Shown here one piece after another: positions 42,508 through 42,625 of a DNA stretch of 47,091 bases; the first letter of the stretch is position 1, and each line of letters begins with the position of its first letter. The stretch is from NCBI RefSeq assembly GCF_003334255.1, contig NZ_QOWU01000042.1, one strand, 5' to 3'. The notes under the pieces were generated by a model. The model saw nothing but the letters and a program-made list of their open reading frames with translations. It did not search any database and had not been told where the DNA came from. A program made the translations under genes and the position numbers. The DNA is from Escherichia coli (lineage in GTDB: Bacteria; Pseudomonadota; Gammaproteobacteria; Enterobacterales; Enterobacteriaceae).

Positions 42508-42549
42508 CCAAGCAAGGGAGCGAAAGCTCCCTTTCACATTGTTGATAAA

Positions 42550-42605
42550 GTCAAATACGAGTTCGATCGGTCCCCTCGCCCCTTTGGGGAGAGGGTTAGG
42601 GTGAG
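42550..42605. repeat. GC-rich palindromic intergenic element (cccctcgcccctttggggagagggttagggtgaggggg)
   Basis: Imperfect inverted repeat of G and C runs between the lptG and yjgR 3' ends; class not identified. Confidence 0.35.
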
Positions 42606-42625
42606 GGGGACAGATCGCGCCTGAC

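Follow-up and report, generated by a model that had tools for sequence, protein, structure and literature searches.

A BoxC/PIT/TMECO repeat copy between the convergent lptG and yjgR genes of Escherichia coli

By sequence, the G/C-run element located between the convergent lptG and yjgR genes of an Escherichia coli strain is a copy of BoxC, an interspersed repeat also described as the PIT or TMECO element, and belongs to the subtype 'type A mm'. The identity is secure and the class is one already known. We are highly confident in reading the copy as a 58-nt non-coding cassette, structure-prone and probably selfish or neutral, that has no role specific to lptG or yjgR. The element merits annotation as a BoxC/TMECO repeat and not the status of a new regulatory site, and it matters little for the window (the whole 47,091-nt stretch of DNA analysed, to which positions refer unless another sequence is named). 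The lptG-yjgR site itself provides a natural two-allele system, with BoxC in about one third of genomes and REP in about two thirds, in which effects on mRNA 3' ends, local mutation rate and recombination could be tested.

The gene for the LPS export ABC transporter permease, lptG, occupies 41425–42507 on the plus strand and ends with a stop codon at 42505–42507, according to the list of open reading frames and to the RefSeq annotation mapped from the 100%-identical record NZ_CP060083.1. On the minus strand, yjgR, encoding a HerA-like (DUF853) protein, occupies 42626–44128 with its stop codon at 42626–42628, again according to the open reading frames and the RefSeq annotation. Both gene names are those given in RefSeq records with 100% identity to the window. 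Positions 42508–42625 are thus the exact convergent spacer, from the lptG stop codon to the yjgR stop codon, as given by both sources. The spacer contains a hairpin with a GAAA loop (42514–42533) and the G/C-run element (42572–42609). The end of BoxC is 16 nt from the stop codon of yjgR, and BoxC is also downstream of the hairpin that follows lptG.

BoxC was reportedly described by Bachellier et al. in the 1990s, and the PIT element is said to go back to Hoyne et al. in 2000. Holder et al. (2015; PMC4666352) identified TMECO with two elements described before, BoxC and Hoyne and Maher's PIT element, and gave the TMECO motif as CCCTCNCCC N3-6 GGGNGAGGG N3 GGGNGAGGG[G/T/C/-]. That TMECO corresponds to the BoxC consensus as first given by Bachellier et al. 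was taken from the statement in that paper together with the family size and unit length in Petrillo et al. (2008; PMC2267715), who described BoxC as 50–56 nt long and present in 22–32 copies in E. coli. The TMECO consensus had one exact match, at 42573–42607, with 0 expected in shuffled sequences, and the 36-nt core CCCTCGCCCCTTTGGGGAGAGGGTTAGGGTGAGGGG (42573–42608) was letter-for-letter identical to rows 7, 11 and 15 of Table 1 in PMC4666352, which are K-12 copies of the class 'A mm'. The 38-mer at 42572–42609 that the earlier note had quoted occurred once in the window, also with 0 matches expected in shuffles. A second copy was sought in the 47-kb window with the exact 38-mer and with the consensus pattern and none was found, so that the window copy is a singleton.

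A 63-nt query found matches in all 5426 of 5426 complete E. coli genomes, at 2–35 places per genome (median 19). The earlier note had offered another interspersed repeat class as one reading of the element, and this was borne out by the number of places per genome and by the alignment of its flanks with those of other copies. It had also proposed searching the genome for further copies and comparing the element with known E. coli repeat families; the element proved to be multi-copy rather than unique and unconserved, and the comparison yielded a match to BoxC/PIT/TMECO. The statement that this is not a typical REP unit held as well, in that the BoxC segment could not be aligned with the REP sequence of the alternative allele and a REP query retrieved a separate family. 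The element is not unusual, as had been supposed, but a member of a long-known family whose core is identical to published K-12 copies. Searching the region with Rfam covariance models at a permissive E-value returned chance hits only, the best having E = 0.63, and every score fell far short of the gathering cut-offs.

The complete cassette (42552–42609, plus strand) was delimited by allele comparison, and its limits match those of the similarity to eight K-12 BoxC copies. All of its parts are given here on the plus strand. The left arm caaatacgagttcgatcggt (42552–42571) is weakly conserved, and the flanks of nine copies give an approximate family pattern of a.t.cg.gc.c.a[ta]cGGTC. The C block CCCTCGCCC (42573–42581), recognised by the consensus pattern and Table 1 of PMC4666352, has a G at 42578 that makes the copy an 'mm' (mismatch) variant. 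Loop 1, CTTTG (42582–42586), has end bases C and G that add one pair to the hairpin stem, as indicated by covariation of the loop-1 ends across lineages. G block 1, GGGAGAGGG (42587–42595), matches the consensus, and in the published model of the triplex it forms Watson-Crick pairs with the C block (PMC4666352). Loop 2, TTA (42596–42598), marks 'type A' (PMC4666352), and G block 2, GGGTGAGGG, with the terminal GG (42599–42609), is assigned to the third strand of the triplex. The C block (42573–42581) is complementary to 42587–42595 with a G.A mismatch or to 42599–42607 with a G.T wobble, and in the nearest-neighbour minimum-free-energy hairpin its partner is G block 2. The earlier description of the element as palindromic, with dyad symmetry, is therefore right as far as partial complementarity goes, but the sequence consists of three blocks, one of C and two of G, and does not form a simple palindrome. 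The variable base of the C block (42578) was T in 7 and G in 16 E. coli K-12 copies, and T in 86 and G in 59 Mitsuaria copies; opposite it in G block 1 the base is always A, and the 'mismatch' form is frequent in distant lineages too.

Similarity among the eight K-12 copies, which were fetched by their Table 1 coordinates, and the window copy extended beyond the core into a left arm ending in cGGTC and into two or three bases on the right (3' G[g/a]a). By this family alignment the BoxC unit of the window has its limits near 42552 and 42610. The window copy is intergenic, as are the eight K-12 copies examined. It shares with BoxC/PIT/TMECO the same core, the three-block architecture and the cGGTC left flank, as well as intergenic location, multiple copies and strain-variable presence, and no sequence difference from the family was found. 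The lptG-yjgR site is not among the 23 TMECO copies of K-12, since K-12 has the other allele; its absence from that set makes it a strain-variable site of the kind that Holder et al. catalogued in other strains, their supplement listing 63 TMECO loci (PMC4666352). A 12-nt outer inverted repeat, CGATCGGTCCCC / GGGGACAGATCG, was considered as a further component; it is locus-specific and missing from other copies, and was treated as fortuitous.

The structural properties of the family have been studied in vitro. TMECO oligonucleotides, including type A mm, formed an intrastrand purine-motif triplex as judged by CD and NMR, with a Tm of about 74 °C for type A mm (PMC4666352). The model proposed has a duplex of the C block and G block 1, to which G block 2 adds the third strand; a G-quadruplex was excluded for the full element, whose NMR spectrum had 18 sharp imino peaks that fit a triplex (PMC4666352). 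Addition of the complementary strand converted TMECO into duplex, in vivo DMS footprinting did not support a stable triplex, and purine-motif triplexes do not form in RNA (PMC4666352). Hoyne and Maher (2002), as cited in PMC4666352, observed a polymerase block in vitro, and detected neither promoter nor terminator activity, nor any effect on RNA polymerase or conjugation. In the present analysis the DNA fold of the 63-mer was unexceptional against shuffled sequences (z = -1.3 and -0.6), by a nearest-neighbour model that cannot score triplexes. Folded as RNA, the whole spacer gave -50.6 kcal/mol (z = -3.7) on one strand and -48.4 kcal/mol (z = -4.0) on the other. A scan with consensus promoter and terminator models called nothing at the BoxC element, and the stem is followed by tails that have no T/U run, GACAGATC on the plus strand and GACCGATC on the minus strand. 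The ends of loop 1 covary, being C..G or T..A in E. coli and GC..GC in Mitsuaria, and this covariation supports the hairpin of C block and G block 1 as a structure that is probably maintained.

At the lptG-yjgR site the BoxC cassette was present in 1811 of the 5426 complete E. coli genomes and a K-12-type single-copy segment with a REP element in 3613; two genomes had neither allele, and no empty-site allele was seen in the 5426. The REP sequence adjoining the K-12-type segment occurs at no fewer than 40 places per genome. K-12 MG1655 has no BoxC here, its spacer (L001 2902–3061) consisting of an unrelated stretch followed by REP. The 14 strains that were compared fell into two allele classes, with the hairpin and both gene ends in common. 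The alleles differ by one block, the 58-nt BoxC cassette (42552–42609) against about 100 nt of K-12-type sequence, and the limits of this block coincide with those of the BoxC family alignment. Target-site duplications, terminal inverted repeats and microhomology were sought at the cassette junctions, and none was convincing. Weak resemblances at the junctions also occur in the left arms of other copies and were counted as part of BoxC.

The two alleles retain some trace of their history. One BoxC allele (L004) retains GATGAACGAA, the left half of a long-range inverted repeat whose right half is found only in the K-12-type allele; in the window allele the left half has gone by a 9-nt deletion. 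From the half retained in L004 we infer that the REP allele is probably the ancestral one and that BoxC later replaced it. Divergence from K-12 is about 1% in lptF and lptG and rises to 6–10 mismatches per 100 nt in the first approximately 500 nt of the 3' part of yjgR (42765–43200), declining thereafter. This jump in divergence across the spacer suggests that the spacer is a recombination boundary.

Among eight orthologous BoxC alleles, 0 of the 36 core columns varied, against substitutions in 15 of the 81 ungapped non-core columns of the spacer (hypergeometric P = 0.0026), and five of the 12 columns directly 3' of the core were variable. The constancy of the core reflects selection, gene conversion from other copies, or young age; under pure neutrality the core would not be expected to stay invariant. 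The unusually variable flanks agree with the raised sequence variability reported near TMECO loci (PMC4666352). Nine chromosomal copies were placed relative to their neighbouring genes. The flanking genes converge on the copy in six cases and run in tandem in the other three, and no copy has divergent neighbours; for the six of nine, binomial P is 0.01 under a null in which convergent intervals make up 25% of intergenic regions, an estimate of our own. Orientation relative to the nearest gene was inconsistent among the copies examined. The published TMECO loci likewise have no consistent orientation relative to genes, their neighbours share no common functional class, and most keep their position across 56 strains (PMC4666352).

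A three-block pattern scan was carried out on species-representative genomes, and the taxa named here are those among the matches listed. These comprised Mitsuaria chitosanitabida (Burkholderiales), a Candidatus Contendobacter MAG (Competibacteraceae), a Methylomirabilota MAG and an unclassified MAG. The 0.91 Mb of DNA retrieved from M. chitosanitabida contained 145 copies, with a unit of about 50 nt, and among them 27 head-to-head pairs 30–272 nt apart. When the translated open reading frames between distant inverted pairs in Mitsuaria were read, ordinary housekeeping genes were found and no transposase or RAYT-like frame. The Methylomirabilota MAG, which is assigned outside the Proteobacteria and may be contaminated, contained doublets in which two subtypes stand in inverted orientation; such doublets are also known in E. 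coli (PMC4666352). The loops and flanks of the motif are lineage-specific. The conservation of the motif in such distant lineages hints at a function or at a dedicated propagation machinery.

BoxC-like matches were also present in 431 plasmid records of PLSDB, 95 of them conjugative, although some of these reach megabase size and may be chromosomal. Most of the matches come from Klebsiella, Sinorhizobium, Rhizobium, Azospirillum and Aeromonas. The copy on the IncF plasmid pKAM645_3 (L143 2501–2556) lies between convergent genes of a cellulose-synthesis cluster. No association of TMECO with plasmids had been reported in 2015 (PMC4666352). Practically no BoxC-like matches occurred in phage genomes.

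The reading preferred here, of a probably selfish or neutral repeat, would work as follows. BoxC would be tolerated in 3' intergenic space, where promoters are left undisturbed. In DNA made single-stranded by replication, transcription or repair, the G-rich strand would fold back on itself and impede polymerases, and this folding could raise local mutation and recombination. Such a proposal of local instability fits the allelic replacement and the variable flanks at lptG-yjgR. In transcripts, a very stable stem-loop added to the 3' untranslated region of yjgR would be a by-product. A search of the literature collection consulted for functional work on TMECO or the intrastrand triplex after the 2015 paper found none.

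The main rivals to this reading are a REP-like role in mRNA and a REPIN-like mobilisation, and both are compatible with it. In the former, a stem-loop in the yjgR 3' untranslated region or in lptFG read-through transcripts would shield the mRNA from 3'-to-5' exonucleases or aid 3'-end formation, the BoxC and REP alleles being interchangeable. REPs stabilise upstream mRNA, and the alternative allele has a REP at the same position. The 16-nt distance of BoxC from the yjgR stop codon, the location of six of nine copies between convergent genes with none between divergent genes, the strong RNA folds on both strands and the covarying loop-1 ends, with the maintained hairpin they point to, are all in keeping with such a role. 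We nevertheless consider it unlikely: there is no U-tract behind the stem on either strand, the third block stays unexplained where purine-motif triplexes do not form in RNA, a 3' placement is equally expected of any tolerated insertion, and the terminator, promoter and RNA polymerase assays of Hoyne and Maher (2002, via PMC4666352) were negative. The latter rival would make BoxC a REPIN- or MITE-like non-autonomous element, moved by a trans-acting enzyme, that was inserted as a 58-nt cassette and displaced the REP segment. Near-identical copies at 2–35 places per E. coli genome, discrete cassette limits that coincide with the allele difference, and inverted doublets in E. coli, Mitsuaria and the Methylomirabilota MAG would be accounted for in this way, as would the patchy and very wide distribution, the very dense occurrence in Mitsuaria (145 copies in 0.91 Mb) and the 431 plasmid records, 95 of them conjugative. 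Against this, neither a target-site duplication nor a terminal inverted repeat marks the cassette at lptG-yjgR, one of the two alleles is present in 5424 of 5426 genomes and no empty site is seen, the translated frames inside the distant inverted pairs of Mitsuaria belong to ordinary genes, BoxC is essentially absent from phages, and most TMECO loci occupy the same position across 56 strains (PMC4666352). Mobilisation of this kind is thus given only a modest chance of being correct.

Two further explanations carry far less weight. On the plus strand, 42586–42609 reads GGGG-AGA-GGG-TTA-GGG-TGA-GGGGG, which fits the canonical G-quadruplex pattern of four runs of at least three G with spacers of 1–7 nt, and a regulatory element of this type could be imagined. 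The adjoining C block would compete for the G runs, however, no regulatory effect has been reported, and the NMR imino signals of the full element fit a triplex (PMC4666352), so a regulatory quadruplex is very improbable. The earlier note had named a protein-binding site as an alternative, and neither the analysis nor the literature consulted gave any support to it. A locus-specific binding site or operator for lptG or yjgR would draw on the internal symmetry of the sequence and nothing further; the same sequence stands at about 19 unrelated loci per genome, its position is at the 3' ends of both genes and away from promoters, two thirds of E. coli genomes have no BoxC at lptG-yjgR, and the neighbours of TMECO loci share no functional class (PMC4666352). 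Such an operator has next to no chance of being the explanation and, like a chance palindrome, is effectively ruled out.

Comparison with other repeat classes places BoxC close to REP/BIME in habit. Both are short, GC-rich, structure-forming interspersed repeats at gene 3' ends, often between convergent genes. They differ in that REP is a simple imperfect palindrome present at a minimum of 40 places per genome, against about 19 for BoxC, and the two have no sequence similarity. REP has a transposase-like partner, RAYT, as well as mRNA-stabilising and protein-binding roles, and we know of no RAYT-type partner and no mRNA-stabilising or protein-binding role for BoxC. Like REPINs, which are REP doublets mobilised by RAYT, BoxC occurs in inverted doublets in several lineages, the window copy being a singleton. 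With Rho-independent terminators BoxC shares a GC-rich stem-loop downstream of stop codons; it differs in that no T/U run follows the stem on either strand. A more far-reaching reading would make BoxC a functional analogue of REP, a structured cassette for gene 3' ends able to take up the same intergenic site. Its propagation or maintenance would then depend on a dedicated mechanism, such as a trans-acting enzyme like that of REPINs or templated copying directed by structure, and BoxC would not be an old repeat in passive decay. This reading, which is speculative and which we judge to be improbable, draws on the clean two-allele state of lptG-yjgR, on the invariance of the core, on the covarying pairs that extend the hairpin, and on the three-block motif with its subtype doublets in distant lineages.

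The other structure in the spacer is the hairpin on the lptG side, AAGGGAGC-GAAA-GCTCCCTT (42514–42533, plus strand), which an inverted repeat search identified with an 8-bp perfect stem. Its DNA fold of -8.6 kcal/mol (z = -4.8) was equalled by 0 of 200 shuffled sequences, and the hairpin was kept in 18 of 18 distinct allele sequences from the window, K-12 and 12 other strains. The 3' tail is TTCACATTGTT in the window strain against TTTATTATTGTT in K-12, and the consensus terminator scan made no call at 42514–42533 in the window strain. The hairpin is likely to be the stem of the lptFG terminator, with a T-tract that is interrupted in the window strain. Its earlier description as terminator-like is accordingly sound for the 8-bp stem, but the T-run of a consensus intrinsic terminator is missing in the window strain and the scan was silent. 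Between the lptG stop codon and the hairpin (42508–42513) the window allele has 9 nt fewer than L004 (389–403). In K-12 those 9 nt are the left arm, GAATGAACGAA, of the long-range inverted repeat, which encloses the terminator hairpin; the right arm, TTCGTTCATTC, is present in the REP allele only.

Some variation was also observed on the yjgR side of the spacer. In two of the 14 sampled strains, AVS0713 (L005) and NB4833 (L140), yjgR is annotated as a pseudogene with an internal stop. Upstream of yjgR, positions 44165–47091 of the window have no homology to K-12, in which idnR follows. In strain G1/2, which is identical to the window, the annotation of this region gives a tRNA-Leu, followed by an AbiJ-NTD4 domain gene and an IS1 element; the sequence upstream of yjgR is thus an island at the tRNA-Leu gene that takes the place of the idn genes.
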